From an uncultured Omnitrophica bacterium (GTDB taxonomy: Bacteria; Omnitrophota; Gorgyraeia; JACQQV01): a DNA stretch of 64,000 nucleotides. Location of the stretch: assembly GCA_947085655.1 (NCBI GenBank), contig CAMTXH010000010.1, forward strand, positions 18,015-82,014, written 5' to 3'. Shown piece after piece: positions 3,882 to 64,000 of the stretch; within the stretch, counting starts at the first letter, position 1, and every line of letters starts with the position of its first letter. The notes under the pieces are model-generated. The model did not search any database, was not told the DNA's origin, and worked only from the letters and a program-made list of their open reading frames with translations. A program made the position numbers and the translations under genes.

Positions 3882-3920
3882 TCAGAACCTCTTTAATCGA
3901 TATATTTTACCAAGAATAGA

Positions 3921-4058
3921 GGGACGTTTCTACACCTGGCTCCAATCTGACTCTAATCTGTCCCCCTAACCTGAATCAAGCTTATTCCGACTTTGGGACG
4001 TTTTCGAAAGTGTCCCCTGCGTCATTCTCACGTTAGGGACACTTTCTGAAAACGTCCC
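3921..4058 (-). promoter_or_regulatory. uvrA upstream region carrying three copies of GGGACGTTT(T/C), including two 22-bp imperfect palindromes GGGAC-N12-GTCCC; candidate operator/promoter
   Basis: GGGACGTTTC at 3921-3930; palindrome GGGACGTTTTCGAAAGTGTCCC at 3995-4016; inverted copy GGGACACTTTCTGAAAACGTCCC at 4036-4058; all 40-180 nt upstream of the uvrA start. Confidence 0.3.
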
Positions 4059-4065
4059 TATAGAC

Positions 4066-4101
4066 AAAAAGCCCCTGTGCCGATAGGCACAGGGGCTTTT
4101 T
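4066..4101. terminator. bidirectional rho-independent terminator
   Basis: AAAAA-GCCCCTGTGCC-gata-GGCACAGGGGC-TTTTT: perfect 11-bp GC-rich stem, 4-nt loop, A-run and T-run on either side. Confidence 0.8.
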
Positions 4102-4124
4102 GTGTTGGTTGTTTATCGAGATGT

Positions 4125-4268
4125 CTATCTTTTGCGACGCCTTTTGGATTTCTTTCTCTTTTGGCCGCCGCGCGCCATCTTCGCCATCGACACATCACCC
4201 TGCTTGTCGATGAAGTAGAGATAGCCCTTTTTGCGCTTGATGCCAAGCTTTGCGATTTTTGTCGCCAT
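4125..4268 (-). CDS. unannotated 47-aa lysine/arginine-rich small protein
   Basis: ATG at 4266-4268 preceded by GGGAGGTG SD (rc of tcacctccc); MATKIAKLGIKRKKGYLYFIDKQGDVSMAKMARGGQKRKKSKRRRKR; stop at 4125-4127; followed on the same strand by the 4066-4101 terminator. Below the 60-aa cutoff of the ORF track. Confidence 0.5.
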   Translation of the reverse strand: MATKIAKLGIKRKKGYLYFIDKQGDVSMAKMARGGQKRKKSKRRRKR

Positions 4269-4285
4269 TCTGTATCACCTCCCTT

Positions 4286-52178: not shown

Positions 52179-53284
52179 ATCACCTCCCAGAAGCGTCGGA
52201 GGGTGCGAATGACCCGCTCTCGGTCCGTTCGGGTCAGTTCCGGATACATCGGAAGAGAGAGAACTTCTCTTGAGGCCCGCTCGCTTTCCGGGAAATCGCC
52301 CCGGCGGTATCCCAGCGAAGAAAGGGCTTTCTGCAGATGAAGCGGAACAGGATAATGAAGGCCTGTCTCAATTCCCTGCTTGAGGAGAAACTGCCGGAGC
52401 CGTCCGCGCTCCCTTGTCCGGATGACAAAGAGGTGATAGACGTGGTGTCTTGCCGGTAACTCCTCCGGCAGTCTCAAGGGGAGTCCCCGAAGCCCCTTCC
52501 GGTAGAATGCGGCATGACGGCGGCGGAGAAGATTCCAACGCCGGAGGTGTTTCAGTTTGATCCGGAGGACCGCTGCCTGGAGTTCATCCATCCTCCCGTT
52601 CCAACCGGGAAAGACGTGCTGATATTTTGTCAAAGCGCCGTGGTCTCGAAGGAGTCTCACTTTTTCGGCCAGGCGCCGGTCACGGGTCACTACCATTCCC
52701 CCCTCGCCGTAACCGCCAAGATTTTTGGAGGGATAAAAACTGAAGCAGCCGACTTTCCCGAGCGACCCGATTCGCCTCCCCCGGTACAGAGCCCCATGCG
52801 CCTGGGCAGCGTCTTCGACGACCGGAATCCCGGTGGCTCTGGAAACGCGAAGGAGCGGCGTCATGTCGCACGGCTGACCGTAGAGATGGACCGGGAGAAA
52901 CGCCCTGGTCCGGCGGTTCGTCTTCCTTTTGACCTGAGATATATCCATGGTATAGGTGGCCGGGTCGATATCCACGAAAACAGGCGTTGCCCCTGTCTGA
53001 AGAATCGCTTCGACGGTGCCGATGAAGGTAAATGGGACGGTGATGACCTCATCCCCCTCCTTAATTCCGAGTCCCCGCAGGGCCAAGTGGAGTGCTTCTG
53101 TTCCGGAGCCGACCGACACCGCATAAGGAACGCCGCAAAAAGCGCCGAAGGCCTCCTCGAATTTCCGGATGTTCGGGCCGTCGATGAGGTGCATCCCGCG
53201 GAAAATGTCCCGAAAGGAAGAAATCACTTCTTTCGCGAGAGGACGATATTGCGCTTTTAAATCAACGAGGGGAATCCGTTTCAC
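52175..53284 (-). CDS. DegT/DnrJ/EryC1/StrS-family sugar aminotransferase
   Basis: AVSVGSGTEALHLAL...FSFYPSKNLGGYGEGGMVVT (PLP-lysine region). Confidence 0.85.
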   Translation of the reverse strand: MKRIPLVDLKAQYRPLAKEVISSFRDIFRGMHLIDGPNIRKFEEAFGAFCGVPYAVSVGSGTEALHLALRGLGIKEGDEVITVPFTFIGTVEAILQTGATPVFVDIDPATYTMDISQVKRKTNRRTRAFLPVHLYGQPCDMTPLLRVSRATGIPVVEDAAQAHGALYRGRRIGSLGKVGCFSFYPSKNLGGYGEGGMVVTRDRRLAEKVRLLRDHGALTKYQHVFPGWNGRMDELQAAVLRIKLKHLRRWNLLRRRHAAFYRKGLRGLPLRLPEELPARHHVYHLFVIRTRERGRLRQFLLKQGIETGLHYPVPLHLQKALSSLGYRRGDFPESERASREVLSLPMYPELTRTDRERVIRTLRRFWEVI

Positions 53285-54393
53285 TGTTGCCTGAGTCCCC
53301 GCTTGAGGAGTTCCTGATCCGCCTTTTCAGACAGATCCTTTGCCTTCTGGGTCTCTCCCCATGAGACAAGATCCTTCAGGCCGTCCCGGAGACTCCATCT
53401 GGGAGTATATCCCAGAGACACGAGCCGGGAAATATCCGCAAAACAGTGCCGGATATCCCCGGAGCGGTATTTCCCAACAACCTGCGGCCGGACAGGAGAC
53501 TGATAGAGATGGATGAGGGTATTTGCGATTTCAAGAATGGAGGTCGCTTTGCCGCTTCCCACGTTGAACGTGCCGTAATCCGCTTTTGGGCTTCCCATGA
53601 CCAGAAGATTCGCCCGCACCACATCTTCGACATGGACAAAGTCCCGGCTCTGAAGACCGTCTTCATAAACAAGGGGCGGCCGGCGGTTTTTAATCCGGCT
53701 TGAAAAAATGGCGCAGACCCCCGTGTACGGATTGGAAAGAGCCTGCCGGGGGCCGTACGCATTGAAATAGCGGAGGGCCGCGACCGGAAGATGATAGGTC
53801 CTCCCGATAAGAAGAGACATCTCTTCTTGGTGACGCTTGGACATGGCATAAATCGAAGTCGGATCGAGCGGCTTGGATTCATCCGTCTGGACGGGGCGTG
53901 CCGGTGTTTTACATTGGGGACAGAGGATTTCCCACTTTTTGATCAAAAGCTGTCTTTCGCTCCGAGACGGGGGGGCAATCAATCCGCATTTGGAACAGCG
54001 GTATCGTCCCTCACCGTAAAGACTCATGGAACTGGCCACAATCAGTTTTTTCACCTTCGTCTTTTCACGGACCAGAAGGTCAAGAAGCAGGGCCGTTCCC
54101 TGGGTATTCACCTCCACATAATCGGCCACCTCATACATCGACTGGCCCACGCCGACGGCGGCCGCCTCATGAAAAACGACGTCGCTCGGCTTAAGAACTT
54201 TTTTAAGCGCGTTCCGGTCCCGGACATCCCCTTTGACATATTGCGCCCCCTTGTTGAGATAATCCGGCCGTTTCTTGCCGTGCACCTGGGGCACAAAATC
54301 ATCATAGACCGTCACCGAGTGCCCCTTCGCAACGAGGGCATCGACCAAATGCGAGCCGATGAACCCGGCACCGCCTGTCACGAGAATCTTCAT
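53281..54393 (-). CDS. NAD-dependent epimerase/dehydratase (SDR) with an internal Cys4 zinc-ribbon insertion
   Basis: [15 protein letters not shown]; Y-x3-K (YAMSK); CSKCG...CPQCKTP inserted in the substrate-binding half. Confidence 0.7.
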   Translation of the reverse strand: MKILVTGGAGFIGSHLVDALVAKGHSVTVYDDFVPQVHGKKRPDYLNKGAQYVKGDVRDRNALKKVLKPSDVVFHEAAAVGVGQSMYEVADYVEVNTQGTALLLDLLVREKTKVKKLIVASSMSLYGEGRYRCSKCGLIAPPSRSERQLLIKKWEILCPQCKTPARPVQTDESKPLDPTSIYAMSKRHQEEMSLLIGRTYHLPVAALRYFNAYGPRQALSNPYTGVCAIFSSRIKNRRPPLVYEDGLQSRDFVHVEDVVRANLLVMGSPKADYGTFNVGSGKATSILEIANTLIHLYQSPVRPQVVGKYRSGDIRHCFADISRLVSLGYTPRWSLRDGLKDLVSWGETQKAKDLSEKADQELLKRGLRQQ

Positions 54394-54454
54394 GAACAGC
54401 GCTCCTTCTTTTCAACAGAAGAATAAGGCGCTACGTCAAGCAACTTGGATGCCT

Positions 54455-54533
54455 CCCGAAAGGCCTCTCCCGGCGTGATCCGCTCCCTATCTATCACTAT
54501 GCCCCGGAGGGCAAGGCCTTTCTTGAGAAAGAC
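54455..54533. repeat. 79-bp direct repeat, copy 1 (last 14 codons plus 32 nt of 3' flank of the GT2 gene)
   Basis: CCCGAAAGGCCTCTCCCGGCGTGATCCGCTCCCTATCTATCACTATGCCCCGGAGGGCAAGGCCTTTCTTGAgAAAGAC; 78/79 identical to 55707-55785. Confidence 0.85.
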
Positions 54534-55662
54534 GAGCCAGAACCTGGTCCTGTTTCAATGCCTTGATCTCCTTCACCTTCTCCCTGACGGCTTCTACCAG
54601 AGGGGCTGCCTCTTTCTCCACCAAAAGACAGAGAGGAATTTTGTCTCCGTATCCGTTCAGGAGACGGTGGATTCTTGGGTCGAAGACCAACACCAAATCA
54701 TATTTTTTCTCTGGGGACCGCCGGACATTGTTCCAAAGTTTAAACTGAGCAACCCAGGGTATTCCGAAGGGGGTATAAGAGAGATTCAAATTGATATGGG
54801 GAGGGAGCGAAAGGGGGTTGATGGAATGCCATACATAAAGTTTATGTTGATCCCGCAAAAGTTCAAAAAAGAGATTCCGGAAAACGGGGATCCTCTCCTG
54901 CATATCTTTGCCAAGGACCAGGACAACCCGGAGGGGAACCCCCCACCGCTCATAAAAGATCCGTCTGTTTCGTTCAAAAAGTTCATTCCAGGAAACCCTT
55001 CCCAGAACCTCAGGATAGGTCACATTTTGCCAGTGATGGACGTAGGCGCCTTTCGCGAGCATGCACCGAAAGCCTGAACGGACCGCCCTCACGGAAAAGT
55101 CCCAATCGTCGTAATAGGCGGGGTCGTAGGCAAGATCCAATCCATGGACAGCCTCGAGGACTTCCCGCTTGATCAGAAAGCAGAATCCCCTACACCAGTC
55201 CATCTCCACAGCCTGCCCCGCCCATCTCTTCAAGGAGGCGGCATGTTTTCCAATATCACCGACCCGTTCGGGCTTGTCTTCCCAGGAAGGATTGACAAGT
55301 CCAATCTTTTCTTCCAACCCGGCGATCCGAATCATCTCTTCAAGCCAGCCGGGTGTGACAACCGTGTCATTGTTCATCACGCATAGATACGGGGATCGGG
55401 AGGCTTGGATTCCTTTATTGACGGCCCTCACCCAGCCTTCGTTTTTTTCATTCTGGATGATCGCGATCCGGTCGGGGTATTCTCTCTGAATTTCAGCCAG
55501 ATATTCCCGTGTCTCTTTTTTGCTTGCGTTATCTACGACGAATATCCGGAAGGGAACCCGGGTCGATCTCAAGATCGACGCGATACACGCTTTTGTGTAG
55601 TCCGGCTCATTATAAACAACCAGAATAATGTCACAACCTTGGGTTTTCCGCACCAGACGCAT
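54487..55662 (-). CDS. GT2-family glycosyltransferase with C-terminal extension domain
   Basis: ILVVYNEPDYTKACIASIL...VVDNAS...NEGWVRAVNKG...VMNND...DWDF; the C-terminus ...[12 protein letters not shown] is encoded by the repeat. Confidence 0.75.
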   Translation of the reverse strand: MRLVRKTQGCDIILVVYNEPDYTKACIASILRSTRVPFRIFVVDNASKKETREYLAEIQREYPDRIAIIQNEKNEGWVRAVNKGIQASRSPYLCVMNNDTVVTPGWLEEMIRIAGLEEKIGLVNPSWEDKPERVGDIGKHAASLKRWAGQAVEMDWCRGFCFLIKREVLEAVHGLDLAYDPAYYDDWDFSVRAVRSGFRCMLAKGAYVHHWQNVTYPEVLGRVSWNELFERNRRIFYERWGVPLRVVLVLGKDMQERIPVFRNLFFELLRDQHKLYVWHSINPLSLPPHINLNLSYTPFGIPWVAQFKLWNNVRRSPEKKYDLVLVFDPRIHRLLNGYGDKIPLCLLVEKEAAPLVEAVREKVKEIKALKQDQVLARLSQERPCPPGHSDR

Positions 55663-55706
55663 TCACCCCTTATTTCAAATCTTGCTTCCGAGAAGGCGCT
55701 TCCCTT

Positions 55707-55785
55707 CCCGAAAGGCCTCTCCCGGCGTGATCCGCTCCCTATCTATCACTATGCCCCGGAGGGCAAGGCCTTTCTTGAAAAAGAC
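55707..55785. repeat. 79-bp direct repeat, copy 2 (last 14 codons plus 32 nt of 3' flank of the GT9 gene)
   Basis: identical to copy 1 except one G/A difference; both GT proteins end [14 protein letters not shown]. Confidence 0.85.
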
Positions 55786-56887
55786 CCCTAGGCCTTCCTA
55801 TTGAGTTCCCGATTTTACCTTCTTCCAAAATGGCCTGCGCCACTCGGAAAACCGTCTCGGGAGAAATCCACTGGAGACACACGTTCTGGGCACATTCAGG
55901 AAGTTTGAAGCGCCGGTAACAGGGACGGCAAACAACAGGTTGAGTCAAAACGCGATGCTTATTTCCTTCAGGACTCGGACCATATACCGTCTCGTCCGTC
56001 GGTCCAAAAAGAGAAAGGGTCTTTGTCCCAACCGCCACCGCCACCCGTAAAAGCCCCCCGTCTGTGCAGATCAAAAAGTGTAACCGCTTGATGAGACTTG
56101 CCGCCTGACGGATGGTTGTCGGAGGCGAAAGCAGTATTCCTTCGGGCGAAACTGCCGAAAGTTCCTCCGCAAGAGCCTTCTCCTGAGGCCCCCAAAAAAT
56201 GACGATTTTGGCATCCAGTTTTTCCCGGAGGGCCCGGATAAGGGAGAGATAAGAAACAACCGGCCACCGTTTCAGGTCTTCCTTCTCCGGCCCGAAACTC
56301 TGGCCCCCTCCCGGTGCGATTCCAATCACCCGATTGTTCAGATGGTGTTCCCTAAAAAATCGGTCGGCAAATGCTTCATCTTCCTCTGTCGTCCAGATCT
56401 CCATCCGATAAGGCCTTTTAGAATCGGCTCCCAACGGATGAAGGAGATCCAGATAATAATCGACAATCGGTTTCTCATCAAATCCCGTAAGGGATACTCG
56501 GTCGGTCAGGAAGCGGCCGCGGCGCCTATAATCCAGACCGACCCGTCGGCGGATGCCTGCCCATTTCATGAGGAGGGACAGTTCAGGCGCCAGCGAGAGA
56601 TCAATGAGGGTGTCAAACCGATGGCGTTTGATGTCGTTTCGAAGAGCAAAGGCAGCCTTAAGCGCCTTCCACCGCGAGGCGCGGGCCAGACGCCTCAAAT
56701 TATCCTTCTCATAAACGAAAATGTAATCCACAAATGGGTGCGTTTCGAGAATCTCTTTTGTCCGTGCGTTGCAAAAATAGCCAATGAAGCAGCCAGGAAA
56801 ATTCTCCTTGAGACGGCGAATCAAAGGGGTCGAGAACAGAACATCCCCGATGCCGAAGGGGTTTGCCAGCAAAAATCGCTGATTCAT
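55739..56887 (-). CDS. GT9-family ADP-heptose:LPS heptosyltransferase-like
   Basis: [28 protein letters not shown]; GT9 C-terminal [10 protein letters not shown]-type block; about 380 aa. Confidence 0.75.
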
Positions 56888-57831
56888 CCTTTTCCCCTTC
56901 CGAGCCGCTTCCGGAAATCTTCAATCGTCAGCCGGAGCCCTTCTTCCAGCGAGGTCTTCGGCTGCCAACCGAGCTCATTTTTTGCCTTTGAAATATCGGG
57001 ACGGCGCTGCTTGGGGTCATCAACGGGAAGGGGTTTTGAAACAATCTGACTGCGGCTCCCGGTCAGCGCAATAATTTTCTCGGCCAGTTCCCGAATGGTC
57101 ATCTCCCGGGGATTTCCAAGATTGACCGGGTCGTTCAGGGGGGCATTCATCAATAAGAAGATCCCTTCGACCAAATCGGATATAAAACAGAAGCTGCGTG
57201 TCTGAGAGCCGTCTCCGTAAACGGTCAGCGGCTCTCCGCAAAGTGCCTGATGGATGAAATTCGGAATGGCCCGGCCATCGGCCTCTCGCATGCGCGGACC
57301 ATAGGTATTGAAAATTCGGGCAATTTTGGTATCCATTTGATGATTGCGATGATAAGCCAGTGTCAATGCTTCCGCGAAACGTTTGGCCTCGTCGTAGACC
57401 CCCCGAGGCCCGATCGGATTGACATTTCCCCAATAATCCTCCCGTTGGGGATTGACGGTCGGGTCGCCGTATACCTCGCTGGTCGAAGCCAAAAGGAATT
57501 TGGCCCCCTTCACCTTGGCGACGCCGAGTGCATTGTGGGTTCCGAGAGACCCTACTTTCAGCGTTTGAATCGGATATTTCAGATAATCCACGGGGCTTGC
57601 AGGAGATGCGAAATGAAGGACATGCTCAATTTTTCCGGAGACTTCGATCGGCTTGGTCACGTCTTGTTGAATCAATGTGAACTGCTCTCTGCCGTTCAGG
57701 TGGGCAATATTGGAGAGACTGCCGGTGATGAGATTATCCAGACAGACAACCTCATTCCCCTTTTCGATCAACCGGTCAATCAGATGGGAACCGATGAATC
57801 CGGCTCCACCGGTGATCAGAACTCTCATCAA
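56884..57831 (-). CDS. UDP-glucuronate decarboxylase-like (UXS / ArnA-decarboxylase family SDR)
   Basis: [18 protein letters not shown]...DNLITGS..NI.HL...ASPASPVDY...[10 protein letters not shown]...YDEAKR. Confidence 0.8.
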
Positions 57832-58070
57832 GCCCCCTCAACGAGCGAGACTATCTCTCCCAGCTCAATCCCCCGGTGTTTATTGGGTATCCGCCGGATA
57901 TACCCCTTCTTCTCAAGCGCCAGGAGTTTATCCACCGCCGCTTTGTAGGAAATGCTTCCGCACCCGTTTTGGATTTCACGGATGTACGGCGCCCGTTTAT
58001 TCATGACGATGTACTCCTTGACGAACTCAAACACTTTCTTCTGCCGTCTGGTCAGTGTATTGTTTCCCAT
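57828..58070 (-). CDS. standalone LexA-type N-terminal winged-helix DNA-binding domain protein (80 aa, no peptidase domain)
   Basis: [65 protein letters not shown] aligns with the LexA N-domain (LTARQQEVFDLIRDHI...[32 protein letters not shown]...SRGIRL); AAGGAGG SD. Confidence 0.7.
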
Positions 58071-60347: not shown

Positions 60348-61264
60348 GATGCTCCCTGTGGCCTGTTGGAATGTATCAAGTGCTGTTCGTTGAGATAATC
60401 CCGAAGCGCCTCCCGCCATGGCCGGAGGGAACTCCCCAAAACCCTGGAAAACTTGTCGCAGTTTAACACCGTTCGAAGAGGCCTTTTTGCCGCAAGACCC
60501 AAAGTCCCCAATGAGATCGGGCGCAGGGGGATATGCCCCGCCCCCCCAAGGGCGAGAATTTCCCGCCCGTATTCAAGCCAACTGCAGCCGCCTCCGCCGC
60601 TTGCAATGTGATAAACGCCCGGAGGGATTTCTTTCTCAAAAAGAGAATAAATGGCGTTGGCAAGATCCGGTGTGTAGGTGGGGATACTCCATTTATCTTC
60701 AACCAGGGAAATCTCTTTTTTCGTCTTTGACCAACCCAAGACGTGGTGAACGAAAGAATCGTGGCCTTCTCCAAAAAGCCAACTTGTCCGGATAATCCAG
60801 TGACGCGGGTATTTCCGGGAATGCATTTCCCCTTCAAGCTTCGACTTTCCGTAAACGTTGACAGGTCGGCACGGGTCCTCCTCACGGTAGGGTTGGGGCC
60901 TTTCTCCCTCAAAAACGTAATCGGTGCTGATATAGCAGAAAGGAACGTTTTGCTGACGGGAAACCTCTGCCAAAAACCGCGTCCCTTCCCCATTCACCTG
61001 ATGGGCCTCCTCGGCGTGCCTTTCACAGTAGTCCACATCGCTGATGGCCGCCGGATGAATCACTGCATCCGGCCGGAGAGATCCAATGATTTTTCCGATT
61101 TCCCGTGAATCCGTAATGTCGGCCTCAAAGCGCTTCTCTCCTTCAAAAGGAGGGCGGATTTTCCTCCCCCGCGACAGACCGTAAAGTTCGTGCCCTTTCG
61201 CAAGAATTCGCCGGGAAAGAGAGGTTCCGAGCATGCCGGTAATGCCCGTTACGAGGAATCTCAT
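60344..61264 (-). CDS. rfbD: dTDP-4-dehydrorhamnose reductase
   Basis: start set at MRFLVTGITGMLG (ATGA overlap); YISTDYVFEGE...YGKSKLEGE. Confidence 0.85.
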   Translation of the reverse strand: MRFLVTGITGMLGTSLSRRILAKGHELYGLSRGRKIRPPFEGEKRFEADITDSREIGKIIGSLRPDAVIHPAAISDVDYCERHAEEAHQVNGEGTRFLAEVSRQQNVPFCYISTDYVFEGERPQPYREEDPCRPVNVYGKSKLEGEMHSRKYPRHWIIRTSWLFGEGHDSFVHHVLGWSKTKKEISLVEDKWSIPTYTPDLANAIYSLFEKEIPPGVYHIASGGGGCSWLEYGREILALGGAGHIPLRPISLGTLGLAAKRPLRTVLNCDKFSRVLGSSLRPWREALRDYLNEQHLIHSNRPQGAS

Positions 61265-63366
61265 CCCCTTTCCCCGTACTGAATCTGGTAATATTCCTGA
61301 AAATCCTTCCGTTTCTTTTTTAGACGCTGCCACCACGCCTCATGGCTCTGGTACCACTGAACCGTCTCCTTGAGTGCATCCACAAAAGAGTGGCGCGGTT
61401 GCCATCCGAGCGATCGGATCTTCGTGGCATCCACGGCGTAACGGCGGTCATGACCCGGCCGGTCTTTGACAAAATCGACCAAACTTTCCGGTTTCCCGAG
61501 GATTTTGAGAATGGCCAGGGTCATCACTTTATTCGAAATTTGCTCCCCCGTTCCGACATTGTAAATTTCGCCTTCTTTTCCCTTTTTCCAGACGGTGTCT
61601 AGGGCCTCGCAGTGGTCCAGGACATAAATCCACTCCCGGACGTTTAAACCGTCTCCATAGAGAGGAAGCGTTCGGTCCTCAATCGCATTAGTGATGAATA
61701 AGGAAACCAGTTTTTCCGGGTACTGATAAGGGCCAAAGTTATTGGTACAACGCGTAATGACCACAGGCAGTTTGTAAGTTTTGTGATACGCGAGAATCAG
61801 AAGATCCGCCGCCGCTTTTGTCGCCGAATAGGGGCTGCTTGGATTGAGGGGACTTTCCTCATTAAAAACCCCTTTTTCGATGCTTCCGTAGACCTCATCG
61901 GTGTTGCCACAGAAATCGAACCTTCCATTTCTCTCGACGAGGAAATTCTTGTTGTCTTTAACCTTTAAACACCAAATATTCCCTTTATAATTAACCCTTT
62001 TGTTTCTGTGCCGGCTGATTGATTTGGCAGTATTGGCTACAAAAACATAATACGATTTACCCTCAATCTTTCTCCCGTTCAATGAAGATGCCGTATGTCT
62101 CGAATGGATGCTTGGCTTAAGATTTAATTTGATGCAAAGTTCGCAGACATCAGAAACTAATTTTTCTGAAACGGTATGATATATCTTGCCGTTGTGGCCA
62201 TCTGAGTCCATGAGCCCTTCTAATAAAGAGGTCAGATATTCTGGTGAGTAATCTAATGCCCATTGCGGAATGCGCTTATGATGGGCTCCTTGCCCGCATT
62301 GGGCAAAAAAATCCATAAGCGTTTTTGAAGAAAAATATAAATGGGTCCCCGCCTTACCGCTATGACAGCGATAGTCTATCCCTAAACGGCTTAGAGTCTC
62401 CTTTACTCTCTTGCGACATTTATCGCTCTCTGGAATATCTAGAAACATTCTATAACTGTGGCATGTGGTTACATGGTTGCCTAACTTCTCTATTGTTTTG
62501 AACTCGCCGCTTTGTTCATCTCTCGCTTTCTCAAGATACTCGCTCCTTGGGAGGCCTGTCATCGTTTCCCGCTTCTTCTCTTGATACGCAATAAAACCGT
62601 CTCCGATAAAAATACCCAAAAGGTACATGAGATCTTTTGTCTTAACACGGCCGTAATCCTTTAGATCGATATACTCCTCCTTCTTGCCTCTCCAATAAAC
62701 CTCAGGCAGATAAAAAATACTCCTTTTTGAGACTTCCTCTGCTGTTTCAACGAGCAATCTCTTCTTGGTTGTGTCAAGGATAAACATGTTATGGTTTGGT
62801 GTGACGCATAAATCGACACGCTTGTTTTTAAAATGAATCATCTCGCCCTCGTAAGGTTGGATGATCACTTTTTCTATCGGCTTAAGTTCTATTTCTTTTG
62901 TTACAGGATTTAGTGAGAAAACAAGGTCTCCTTCTTTTAATTCCTTGTATGTTTTCAGTCCTTCAGGTGTCACAGCTCTTGTCTGTTCATCGTAACAACT
63001 AACATGAATAAAACGATTCAGACTATATTTCTTCGCTGCTTCTAACAAAACATGGGTTCCGACGATATTGGTCATCACAAAGTCCTCGGCTTTCAGGATA
63101 GATCGGTCAACGTGGGTCTGTGCCGCAAAGTTGAAAAGAGCGGTGCATCCCTTCATCGTCCTTTCGACCGTTTTGGGATCGCAGATTTCCCCCTGGATGA
63201 AGGTGTAATGGGGGTTCTTTTCGAGATCGGCCAGATTTTCTCGATTTCCGCTGTAGGTCTCTTTGTCCAAATTGACCAGGTGGAGATCCGGATACCGCTT
63301 GAGGAGGAAACGGATAAAATTGGAGCCGATGAAACCGAGCCCCCCGGTCACTAAAATTTTTTTCAT
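61261..63366 (-). CDS. rfbB: dTDP-glucose 4,6-dehydratase interrupted in-frame by a 365-aa intein (mature extein about 336 aa)
   Basis: N-extein MKKILVTGGLGFIGSNF...NRFIHVS(123) | intein | C-extein TDEVYGSI...YSATKAAADLL...NNFGPYQYPEKL (213 aa); the STDEVYG catalytic motif is split between S and T. Confidence 0.85.
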   Translation of the reverse strand: MKKILVTGGLGFIGSNFIRFLLKRYPDLHLVNLDKETYSGNRENLADLEKNPHYTFIQGEICDPKTVERTMKGCTALFNFAAQTHVDRSILKAEDFVMTNIVGTHVLLEAAKKYSLNRFIHVSCYDEQTRAVTPEGLKTYKELKEGDLVFSLNPVTKEIELKPIEKVIIQPYEGEMIHFKNKRVDLCVTPNHNMFILDTTKKRLLVETAEEVSKRSIFYLPEVYWRGKKEEYIDLKDYGRVKTKDLMYLLGIFIGDGFIAYQEKKRETMTGLPRSEYLEKARDEQSGEFKTIEKLGNHVTTCHSYRMFLDIPESDKCRKRVKETLSRLGIDYRCHSGKAGTHLYFSSKTLMDFFAQCGQGAHHKRIPQWALDYSPEYLTSLLEGLMDSDGHNGKIYHTVSEKLVSDVCELCIKLNLKPSIHSRHTASSLNGRKIEGKSYYVFVANTAKSISRHRNKRVNYKGNIWCLKVKDNKNFLVERNGRFDFCGNTDEVYGSIEKGVFNEESPLNPSSPYSATKAAADLLILAYHKTYKLPVVITRCTNNFGPYQYPEKLVSLFITNAIEDRTLPLYGDGLNVREWIYVLDHCEALDTVWKKGKEGEIYNVGTGEQISNKVMTLAILKILGKPESLVDFVKDRPGHDRRYAVDATKIRSLGWQPRHSFVDALKETVQWYQSHEAWWQRLKKKRKDFQEYYQIQYGERG
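61903..62997 (-). mobile_element. intein with LAGLIDADG homing-endonuclease domain inside rmlB
   Basis: Cys1 (CYDEQTRAVTPEG, block A); TPNHNMF (block B, TxxH); two LAGLIDADG motifs (LLGIFIGDGF; LLEGLMDSDGH); block F NIWCLKVKDNKNFLVERNG; terminal ...FCGN followed by the +1 Thr; visibly lower GC than the flanking extein. Confidence 0.8.
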
Positions 63367-64000
63367 CTTTTCCTCAACTTTTCCGCAACCAGCTGATTTG
63401 CCCGGAAGAGCGATTCAAACGTCCCTGAGTCCGACCACCATCCCTCTAGGATGCCGTAGGTCATTTCTCCCTTCCGGATGTAGGCGTTATTGACATCCGT
63501 GATCTCAAGCTCTCCGCGAGCGGATGGTTTTAACGGGCGAATGATATCGAATACATGACCGTCGTACATATACACCCCTGTGACGATATAGTTGGATTTT
63601 GGTTTTTTCGGTTTTTCCTCAATCCGGGCCAATCTCCCGTTTTTAATCTCAGCCACACCAAACCTCTGGGGATCTTCCGCCTCTTTGAGCAGAATGCGTC
63701 CCCCCTTTTTCTGATTCCGGAATATATCAACTTCCTTTTGGATTCCTTTCTCCAGGATGTTGTCCCCCAAAATCACGACGATTTTCTCGCCGTTTGAAAA
63801 ATGCTCCGCCAACGACAGGGCATCGGCAATCCCGCCCTCCCCTTTCTGGTAGGCGTAGTGGATCTCCTTAAGCCCAAAGGCCTTTCCATCTCCGAGAAGT
63901 CTCAAAAAATCACCGGCGTTATTCCCTCCGGTCACGAGGAGAATGTCTCGGATGCCAGCTTCTACAAGTGTTTGGATCGGATAATAAATCATCGGTTTGT
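63363..64000 (-). CDS. rfbA: glucose-1-phosphate thymidylyltransferase, 5' end beyond the window
   Basis: internal ...PMIYYPIQTL...ILGDN...RGELEITDVNNAYI; the N-terminal G-x-G-T-R-L part lies beyond 64000. Confidence 0.85.
   Translation of the reverse strand, partial: KPMIYYPIQTLVEAGIRDILLVTGGNNAGDFLRLLGDGKAFGLKEIHYAYQKGEGGIADALSLAEHFSNGEKIVVILGDNILEKGIQKEVDIFRNQKKGGRILLKEAEDPQRFGVAEIKNGRLARIEEKPKKPKSNYIVTGVYMYDGHVFDIIRPLKPSARGELEITDVNNAYIRKGEMTYGILEGWWSDSGTFESLFRANQLVAEKLRKR

Follow-up and report, generated by a model that had tools for sequence, protein, structure and literature searches.

Two adjacent and unrelated glycosyltransferase genes of a polysaccharide gene cluster, carried by an Omnitrophota-like MAG, end in the same 80 nt. 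On balance, this 80-nt module appears to be a lineage-specific recombination scar, the duplicated stub of a displaced gene of the GT9 type; a product of recombination is the best reading of what its sequence offers. It is neither a domain nor a known RNA, the sequences searched show no dispersed copies of it, and the event behind it, although a new instance, is of a known kind.

The repeat and its reality in the reads

A repeat search of the window (the whole 64-kb stretch of DNA that was analysed) identifies a direct repeat of 80 nt in two copies, identical at 79 of 80 positions and spaced 1252 nt apart. Both are at the 3' ends of minus-strand genes: copy A (54454..54533, minus strand) lies 3' of the native end of a GT2 glycosyltransferase gene, and copy B (55706..55785, minus strand) lies 3' of a GT9 heptosyltransferase-like gene. 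(Repeat positions are numbered in the direction of the genes: R1 is at 54533 and R80 at 54454 in copy A; R1 is at 55785 and R80 at 55706 in copy B.) The sole mismatch is at repeat position 7 (R7), which is C in the GT2 copy and T in the GT9 copy; T is also the state found in the GT9 3' ends of relatives when these are aligned with MAFFT, in what is a weakly similar region. What the two genes share at their ends, the last 14 codons, a TAG stop and a 33-nt flank after the stop, comes entirely from the repeat. The original prediction had put the common segment at 79 nt with one mismatch and the shared 3' flank at 32 nt: repeat, mismatch and flank are all there, and each of the two lengths has to be raised by one nucleotide. 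At a minimum length of 30 nt and an identity above 80%, this is the only repeat in the window; its 65-nt core has two exact matches there, as against none in 100 dinucleotide-preserving shuffles.

An assembly error had been named beforehand as one of the findings that would overturn the prediction. An artefact of the metagenome bin (a collapsed or chimeric join) would suit the origin of the sequence in a MAG, a repeat that does not reach the length of a read, and k=31 contigs that break at it. Against this, two different assemblies agree: identical GT2 and GT9 proteins are found on two NCBI contigs (135,685 and 164,428 bp), and between the window and the GCA_964374045.1 contig there is a single SNP in 19.5 kb (at 63634), with identical repeat structure. 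That the window reaches past the end of this contig marks the two as different assemblies. The Logan contigs (k=31; runs ERR4904390-392) break in an instructive way: one covers the first 37 nt of copy B, as far as the last 31-mer with the T variant, and stops there; a second begins inside the repeat, 30 nt from its 3' border, and runs on into the epimerase gene. One unitig end relative to the variant base, and the other relative to the border of the repeat, are thus at a distance of exactly k-1, as a true two-context repeat in a de Bruijn graph would have them. Standard reads, and the largest k used by common assemblers, also exceed the shared 73 nt in length (general figures, not those of these runs). 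The repeat is not an assembly artefact; two agreeing assemblies and the Logan break points make that explanation highly improbable.

Two complete enzymes, one probably accidental tail

The GT2 ORF (54487..55662, minus strand) encodes 391 aa, with PF00535 at residues 12-119 (Pfam), and takes its last 14 codons (54531-54490) and its TAG (54489-54487) from copy A. The GT9 ORF (55739..56887, minus strand) encodes 382 aa, with PF01075 at residues 80-326 (Pfam), and takes its last 14 codons (55783-55742) and its TAG (55741-55739) from copy B. In the closest GT2 homologue (P0122; 370 aa, 54% identical) the C-terminus reads ...RRRLLSR, aligned to ...QDQVLAR of the window protein, that is, to the residue at which the repeat starts. 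The best GT9 homologues (50-55% identical, 350-365 aa; those with source names are from Candidatus Omnitrophota) end about 20-26 residues before the window GT9, which keeps its own native C-terminal motif upstream of the repeat. The distance from the CLxWIxP motif to the C-terminus is a median of 20 residues (range 16-34) in 94 GT9 homologues; in the window GT9 it is 46. The alignment of orthologues that had been proposed as a check on the prediction accordingly reveals native GT2 and GT9 C-termini without the tail: as these alignments read, both enzymes are complete before the module, and each, without a stop of its own, runs on for 14 codons to the central TAG.

The tail peptide is absent from the other 389 retrieved proteins and from all aligned homologues. 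The six-frame peptides of the repeat have no match in Pfam and none in 5.8 billion proteins (a concatenated query at E <= 10, with which matches to the 14-residue tail by itself would be missed), and the idea that the repeat is a fragment of some other conserved protein was rejected on these results. Could the tail be a conserved C-terminal motif of both enzyme families? The identity of the two tails speaks for it, and nothing more does; the same absence from aligned homologues, retrieved proteins, the large protein search and Pfam leaves it a practically negligible chance. The shared tail reads instead as an out-of-frame by-product, because both live genes would have lost their stops at the join and come to be read out of frame into a relic, as far as the same TAG. 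In both enzymes it is probably neutral.

The end of another GT9 gene, in another frame

The relic lies in the frame one base upstream of that in which GT2 and GT9 enter the repeat; this frame is open throughout the repeat and on into the unique spacers that follow. In copy A it yields relic A (54390..54482, minus strand; ERITPGEAFRE|ASKLLDVAPYSSVEKKERCS*), which consists of R52-R80 and a 60-nt spacer and whose TGA overlaps the ATG of the epimerase gene (ATGA). In copy B the same frame yields relic B (55675..55734, minus strand; ERITPGEAFRE|GKRLLGSKI*), consisting of R52-R80 and 31 nt of spacer, with its stop 12 nt before the GT2 ATG (55662) and the RBS AAGGGG between them. Both relic frames stop where a boundary with the next gene would naturally lie. 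The original prediction had not noticed that the module is the relic of a GT9 gene end in another frame.

The closest match to the relic is the GT9 gene at locus L037 (Omnitrophica MAG GCA_016206785.1), whose product ends EWISPEQAFREASRLLDAAAVS*. Aligned with this end, the relic A peptide has a BLOSUM62 local score of 64 (500 shuffles give 31.7 +/- 4.2, with a maximum of 49) and the relic B peptide a protein score of 50 (null 31.7 +/- 4.2). At the DNA level, copy B aligns with the L037 GT9 3' end with a score of 40 (null 16 +/- 2.6, z = 9.2), continuing 22 nt past the repeat border; local alignment of relic A DNA gives z = 5.7-8.4, and alignments of the copies give z = 8.4 with L040 (both copies) and 4.5-4.8 with L041. 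A short-word BLAST of the repeat and its spacers against the loci of relatives picks out a 15-nt exact match, AGGCCTTTCGGGAAG, that crosses the border between repeat and spacer and belongs to the 3' end of the L037 GT9 gene. The relics are colinear with the GT9 ends of relatives (MAFFT), and in neither copy do the matches stop at the border between repeat and spacer. A colinear W-I-x-P-E-x-x-F-x-E-A-x-x-L-L segment that continues to a stop is present in R52-R80 plus the spacers and not in R1-R51.

Not every GT9 end resembles the relic. Aligned with the 3' end of the resident GT9 gene itself, and with that of the syntenic locus L006, the relic DNA stays at the null (z = 0-1); ends of the GT9a type do not match it, and an HMM of GT9 C-termini across the family returns nothing (the GT9 tail is variable). 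The first 51 nt of the repeat (R1-R51) have no significant similarity to the GT9 3' ends of relatives and score as shuffles do, and for that reason the view that the whole module is a GT9 relic was rejected. In R52-R80 and the spacer behind it, in contrast, the decayed 3' end of a GT9-type gene can be read without a break in both copies; by the same alignments, this source gene is different from the resident GT9. From this continuity as a GT9 C-terminus it follows that each copy would be the stub of a displaced GT9 gene. (Two observations on the surroundings: the two spacers are about 50% alike and have in common only AGCGCCTT and an RBS-like TTGAAA..AAGGRG, which is too weak to use; a GRPRG/CRPCY resemblance upstream of copy B, noted by eye, is unsupported at the DNA level.)

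The quasi-palindrome

Of the 80 nt, 73 (R8-R80) form a quasi-palindrome, at 54454..54526 in copy A and 55706..55778 in copy B (minus strand). Its arms, TCAAGAAAGGCCTTGCCC (54526-54509) and GGGAGAGGCCTTTCGGGA (54471-54454), are complementary at 14 of 18 positions and include a perfect core of 9 bp; between them are an inner stem, GTGAT/ATCAC, and a loop region with stops in two frames (TAGTGATAGATAG). The stem said in the original prediction to enclose the stop codon is there as described: GAAAGGCCU (54522-54514) faces AGGCCUUUC (54466-54458) around the TAG at 54489-54487. When the 80 nt are shuffled 3000 times, a perfect inverted repeat of at least 9 nt turns up in 19 shuffles and a pair of arms matching at 14 of 18 positions in six.

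The predicted RNA structure is an imperfect hairpin of 21 bp at about -29 kcal/mol, a folding energy that is not exceptional relative to dinucleotide shuffles (z from 0.1 to -1.4). A terminator scan does not flag the hairpin as an intrinsic terminator: the sequence directly after it is GGGAGGCA or GGGAAGGG, with no T-run. Rfam 15 has no match at the gathering threshold in the window, the best match below it being RAGATH-32 (21.3 bits, threshold 41.8), to part of copy B only. A further claim, that the module donates an RNA structure, fares accordingly by halves: a hairpin is predicted, but its energy is ordinary, and it comes with neither a T-run nor an Rfam match.

The right arm of the palindrome is the GT9 coding relic (...EAFRE), conserved in L037. 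The left arm coincides with 7 nt that are extra in comparison with the GT9 ends of relatives (MAFFT, in a region that is not significantly similar). The duplicated segment is the hairpin plus 7 nt, which places both breakpoints of the duplication at the base of the hairpin.

Relatives and the variable slot

Downstream of copy A lies the gene of an NAD-dependent epimerase (53281..54393, minus strand; 370 aa), with its own RBS, GAAGGAG, in the spacer. The most informative relative, locus L006 (ENA ERZ27276474), has GT9, a gap of 19 nt, a GT2 of 370 aa and an ATGA overlap with the epimerase gene, and it has no repeat; its epimerase is also 370 aa long and is 69% identical to that of the window. 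In relatives the epimerase gene starts with its ATG overlapping the stop of the gene before it; in the window the ORFs are separated at the two junctions by 76 and 93 nt. Current collections contain no relative whose epimerase is more than 85% identical to the 370-aa protein of the window. Other relatives retain GT9 and the epimerase and differ in the genes that occupy the slot between them: a methyltransferase plus GT2 (L002), a GT4 enzyme (L036, L037 and L041) or a methyltransferase alone (L038 and L039).

A compositional test detects nothing foreign in GT2, whose 54% identity to the GT2 of a relative fits vertical descent. The notion that GT2 arrived as a cassette together with both repeats is weakened by the order GT9-GT2-epimerase of L006, in which the repeats are missing; a softer version survives, in which GT2 and a short leader would have been placed into an existing stub. 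The earlier claim of a copied 3' cassette, as opposed to common ancestry, is upheld: the enzymes are complete before the module, and the syntenic L006 has no module.

How the scar may have arisen

The following sequence of events would account for these features. An older GT9 gene, abutting the downstream gene, would have been displaced, with its last 30-47 codons left behind as a 3' stub with a palindromic junction. The left arm of the palindrome may have been copied, by fold-back or template switching, from the right arm, which is the stub; this fold-back origin of the first 51 nt is suggested by the 14/18 match between the arms and by that match only. Later, a segment of 1172 nt (a 43-nt leader plus GT2) would have been put into the stub, the leader representing the last 31 nt and the 12-nt spacer of another GT9 gene. 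The conserved block GGCCTTTCGGGA may have been the site of a crossover for one end of the segment; its other end would have been joined illegitimately 80 nt upstream, duplicating the hairpin. Such a join resembles homology-facilitated illegitimate recombination or replicative template switching, with the hairpin as a possible hotspot that set the duplication breakpoints at its base. The downstream genes retain their own ribosome-binding sequences (AAGGGG for GT2, GAAGGAG for the epimerase), from which, to judge by their placement, each starts. The arrival of GT2 by insertion is something that we infer: its composition is normal, and it could have been inherited vertically.

Some observations sit awkwardly with the proposed scar. 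The repeats are 99% identical and the spacers about 50%, which calls for a crossover exactly at the border or for a recent event; no GT9-like sequence is found upstream of R1 in copy B; and the junction of GT9 with the repeat may lie at or near the point at which GT2 joins it, for which the idea of a hairpin hotspot is the only explanation on offer.

Other readings

Might the hairpin be what matters, rather than its history? A selected intercistronic RNA hairpin that stabilises 3' ends, serves as a processing site or uncouples translation, in the manner of E. coli REP, with selection or gene conversion maintaining identical junctions, is rather unlikely. That a 21-bp hairpin surrounds the stop codon at each of two successive junctions in the operon, that the palindrome is improbable by chance and that the stem region is 99% conserved between diverged spacers all speak for it, but the unexceptional folding energy, the lack of a T-run terminator and of an Rfam family, and above all syntenic relatives that do without a hairpin at the equivalent junctions speak against it (covariation is uninformative with only two near-identical copies). 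Gene conversion might also have acted by itself: two pre-existing, diverged GT9 stubs would have had 80 nt homogenised between them, with no insertion of GT2 and with the gene order ancestral. A relative with identical gene order, the normal composition of GT2, the resemblance of both spacers to GT9 ends, and a right border that coincides with the block of highest conservation, a natural point of resolution, are all in keeping with this proposal. It is nonetheless unlikely: it needs a prior GT9 stub between GT2 and the epimerase, which no relative shows; at about 50% identity the spacers are too diverged to suggest enough starting homology; and left of R1 there is no homology with which to resolve the tract.

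A third possibility, a miniature mobile element of the hairpin kind (MITE/REP/REPIN-like, 73-80 nt) that was independently inserted at two gene ends and replaced the stops, is quite unlikely. It has the imperfect terminal inverted repeats of such elements (14/18 arms with the 9-bp core, rare in shuffles), the location at gene ends, and copies that are 99% identical in diverged flanks. In-silico excision of the 73 nt, moreover, leaves tidy ends, with one gene overlapping the epimerase ATG (-4) and the other ending 12 nt short of GT2, but this is a 1-in-3 coincidence of frame, and both copies are entered in the same frame. A mobile element should have more copies elsewhere in the genome. Two copies are seen in the window and about 18 kb of additional flank, and no third, exact or degenerate, is found in either, the other intergenic gaps of the window included; in public collections there are none, whether the exact 22-mer is sought in GTDB representative genomes or further copies in viral contigs, plasmids or phages, and a pattern of terminal inverted repeats with a gap has 14 matches in GTDB genomes and 8 in JGI metagenomes, all of them unrelated hairpins. 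Target-site duplications are absent at the repeat copies. The element would also have no borders of its own: GT9 homology crosses the right border in both copies, where the right arm and the unique flank make up a continuous GT9 3' end, so that this border is no insertion junction. Insertion of a 73-nt MITE was rejected once that homology had been seen, and the small repeat element of the original prediction goes with it, having no third copy in the collections searched and a right third that is continuous with unique flanks. Very unlikely, finally, is an active recombination module, in which the 80-nt unit brackets the glycosyltransferase slot as part of an attC-like or repeat-mediated cassette system. 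In that event GT2 could be looped out, re-inserted or swapped between strains, with the hairpin directing the breakpoints, and Omnitrophota would have a switchable surface glycan. The core sites of integron attC (R'' RYYYAAC and R' GTTRRRY) are absent, the 80 nt being devoid of GTT and AAC on the gene strand, and the neighbours of the repeat are conserved cluster genes common to relatives.

Known systems of a similar kind

The recombination scar has its nearest likeness in the gene remnants that lie where recombination has joined sequences in O-antigen clusters, such as that of tyv in the Abe module of Yersinia pseudotuberculosis (PMC5399914). The setting in a polysaccharide cluster, the variable glycosyltransferase slot and the stub of a displaced gene at the junction are the same as in these O-antigen and capsule remnants, and so are intergenic gaps where the genes of relatives overlap and an event with one homologous and one non-homologous end. 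The present stub differs in being only about 30-47 codons long and set inside a quasi-palindrome, and in being present twice, as an 80-nt direct repeat that flanks one gene and into which two live genes are read out of frame. [quoted passage not shown] There, too, a short conserved stretch anchors the incoming DNA, the other end of which is joined illegitimately, and old 3' ends are left downstream as relics. The toxin-immunity logic of those arrays is lacking here, however; the relics are tiny and non-functional, and the event duplicated recipient sequence instead of only displacing it.

Likenesses of form lead elsewhere. The palindromic elements of Rickettsia, the Correia elements of Neisseria, REP/REPIN and ERIC have tens to hundreds of dispersed copies with borders of their own. 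Compared by description, they are like the module in size (70-150 nt), in forming hairpins, in lying at gene ends and in being able to supply codons and a stop; they are unlike it in that the module has two local copies and a right arm that continues into the flank as host gene. Integron attC cassettes likewise consist of a gene followed by an imperfect palindrome of similar size, which ORFs can enter, and their sites flank single genes; here the R''/R' core sites are missing, and the neighbours are genes of a conserved operon, not of an array.

Consequences

No new kind of element or mechanism is revealed. What the module may provide is a clean and datable example of the remodelling of a glycan cluster in an uncultured phylum: a 3' stub left over from a displaced gene, breakpoints marked by a hairpin, and the same accidental tail on two live enzymes. 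Homologous recombination between the 80-bp direct repeats could also delete GT2, which predicts a GT2-deletion allele in the population. As for databases, annotation pipelines will list a common "motif" for the C-termini of these two unrelated proteins, and that motif will be spurious.

A variable slot in the glycosyltransferase cluster

The interval between the GT9 gene and the gene for the 370-aa NAD-dependent epimerase is a gene-replacement hotspot. Comparing positions 54394-55738 of the window with seven loci fetched from relatives (L002, L006, L036-L039 and L041) shows that the contents of this slot vary among the relatives: a GT2 gene, a methyltransferase together with a GT2, a GT4, or a methyltransferase alone.

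The unique spacers that follow the two repeat copies at the 3' ends of GT2 (copy A) and GT9 (copy B) have only two elements in common: AGCGCCTT and TTGAAA..AAGGRG. In the predicted fold of the spacer after copy A (54394-54453, minus strand), the ribosome binding site of the epimerase gene, GAAGGAG, is paired with an upstream CUUCUUC; this may constitute an RBS-sequestering hairpin. The Rfam family RAGATH-32 generates a sub-threshold match (21.3 bits, E 0.04; the gathering score is 41.8) at 55746-55828 on the minus strand. This is probably a chance match, because it covers only the end of GT9 and part of copy B, and has no counterpart at copy A.

Other members of the cluster

Within the sugar-nucleotide/glycosyltransferase cluster, a gene at 57828-58070 (minus strand) encodes a protein of 80 aa whose DNA-binding domain is of the LexA type (PF01726). 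This protein is conserved: it occupies the same position in all the relatives whose loci cover the site (L002, L004, L006, L034 and L036-L040), and is a candidate regulator of the cluster. The GT9 and GT2 genes also share their cluster with a fused double enzyme of 701 aa, composed of two tandem NAD-dependent epimerase/dehydratase domains (61261-63366, minus strand). In one relative's cluster (L002), inteins (PF14890, LAGLIDADG) are lodged in the UDP-glucose dehydrogenase (918 aa; L002 874-3630) and in an epimerase (798 aa; L002 11749-13086); the window's orthologues of these two enzymes (434 and 347 aa, respectively) are without inteins.

Provenance of the window and a possible breakpoint

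A single SNP (G/A at 63634) separates the window from the GCA_964374045.1 contig, which has the same repeat structure, and the window reaches approximately 10 kb past the end of that contig (window 1-10500); the window is therefore from a sister assembly, and is not the GCA_964374045.1 contig itself. Position 3948 is the common endpoint of three independent Logan contigs (L029-L031), suggestive of a repeat or a strain breakpoint. The surrounding intergenic region (3882-4285) also contains a 22/23-nt inverted repeat (GGGACGTTTTCGAAAGTGTCCC at 3995-4016 and GGGACACTTTCTGAAAACGTCCC at 4036-4058), beyond which lies a terminator-like hairpin, at approximately 4066-4101.
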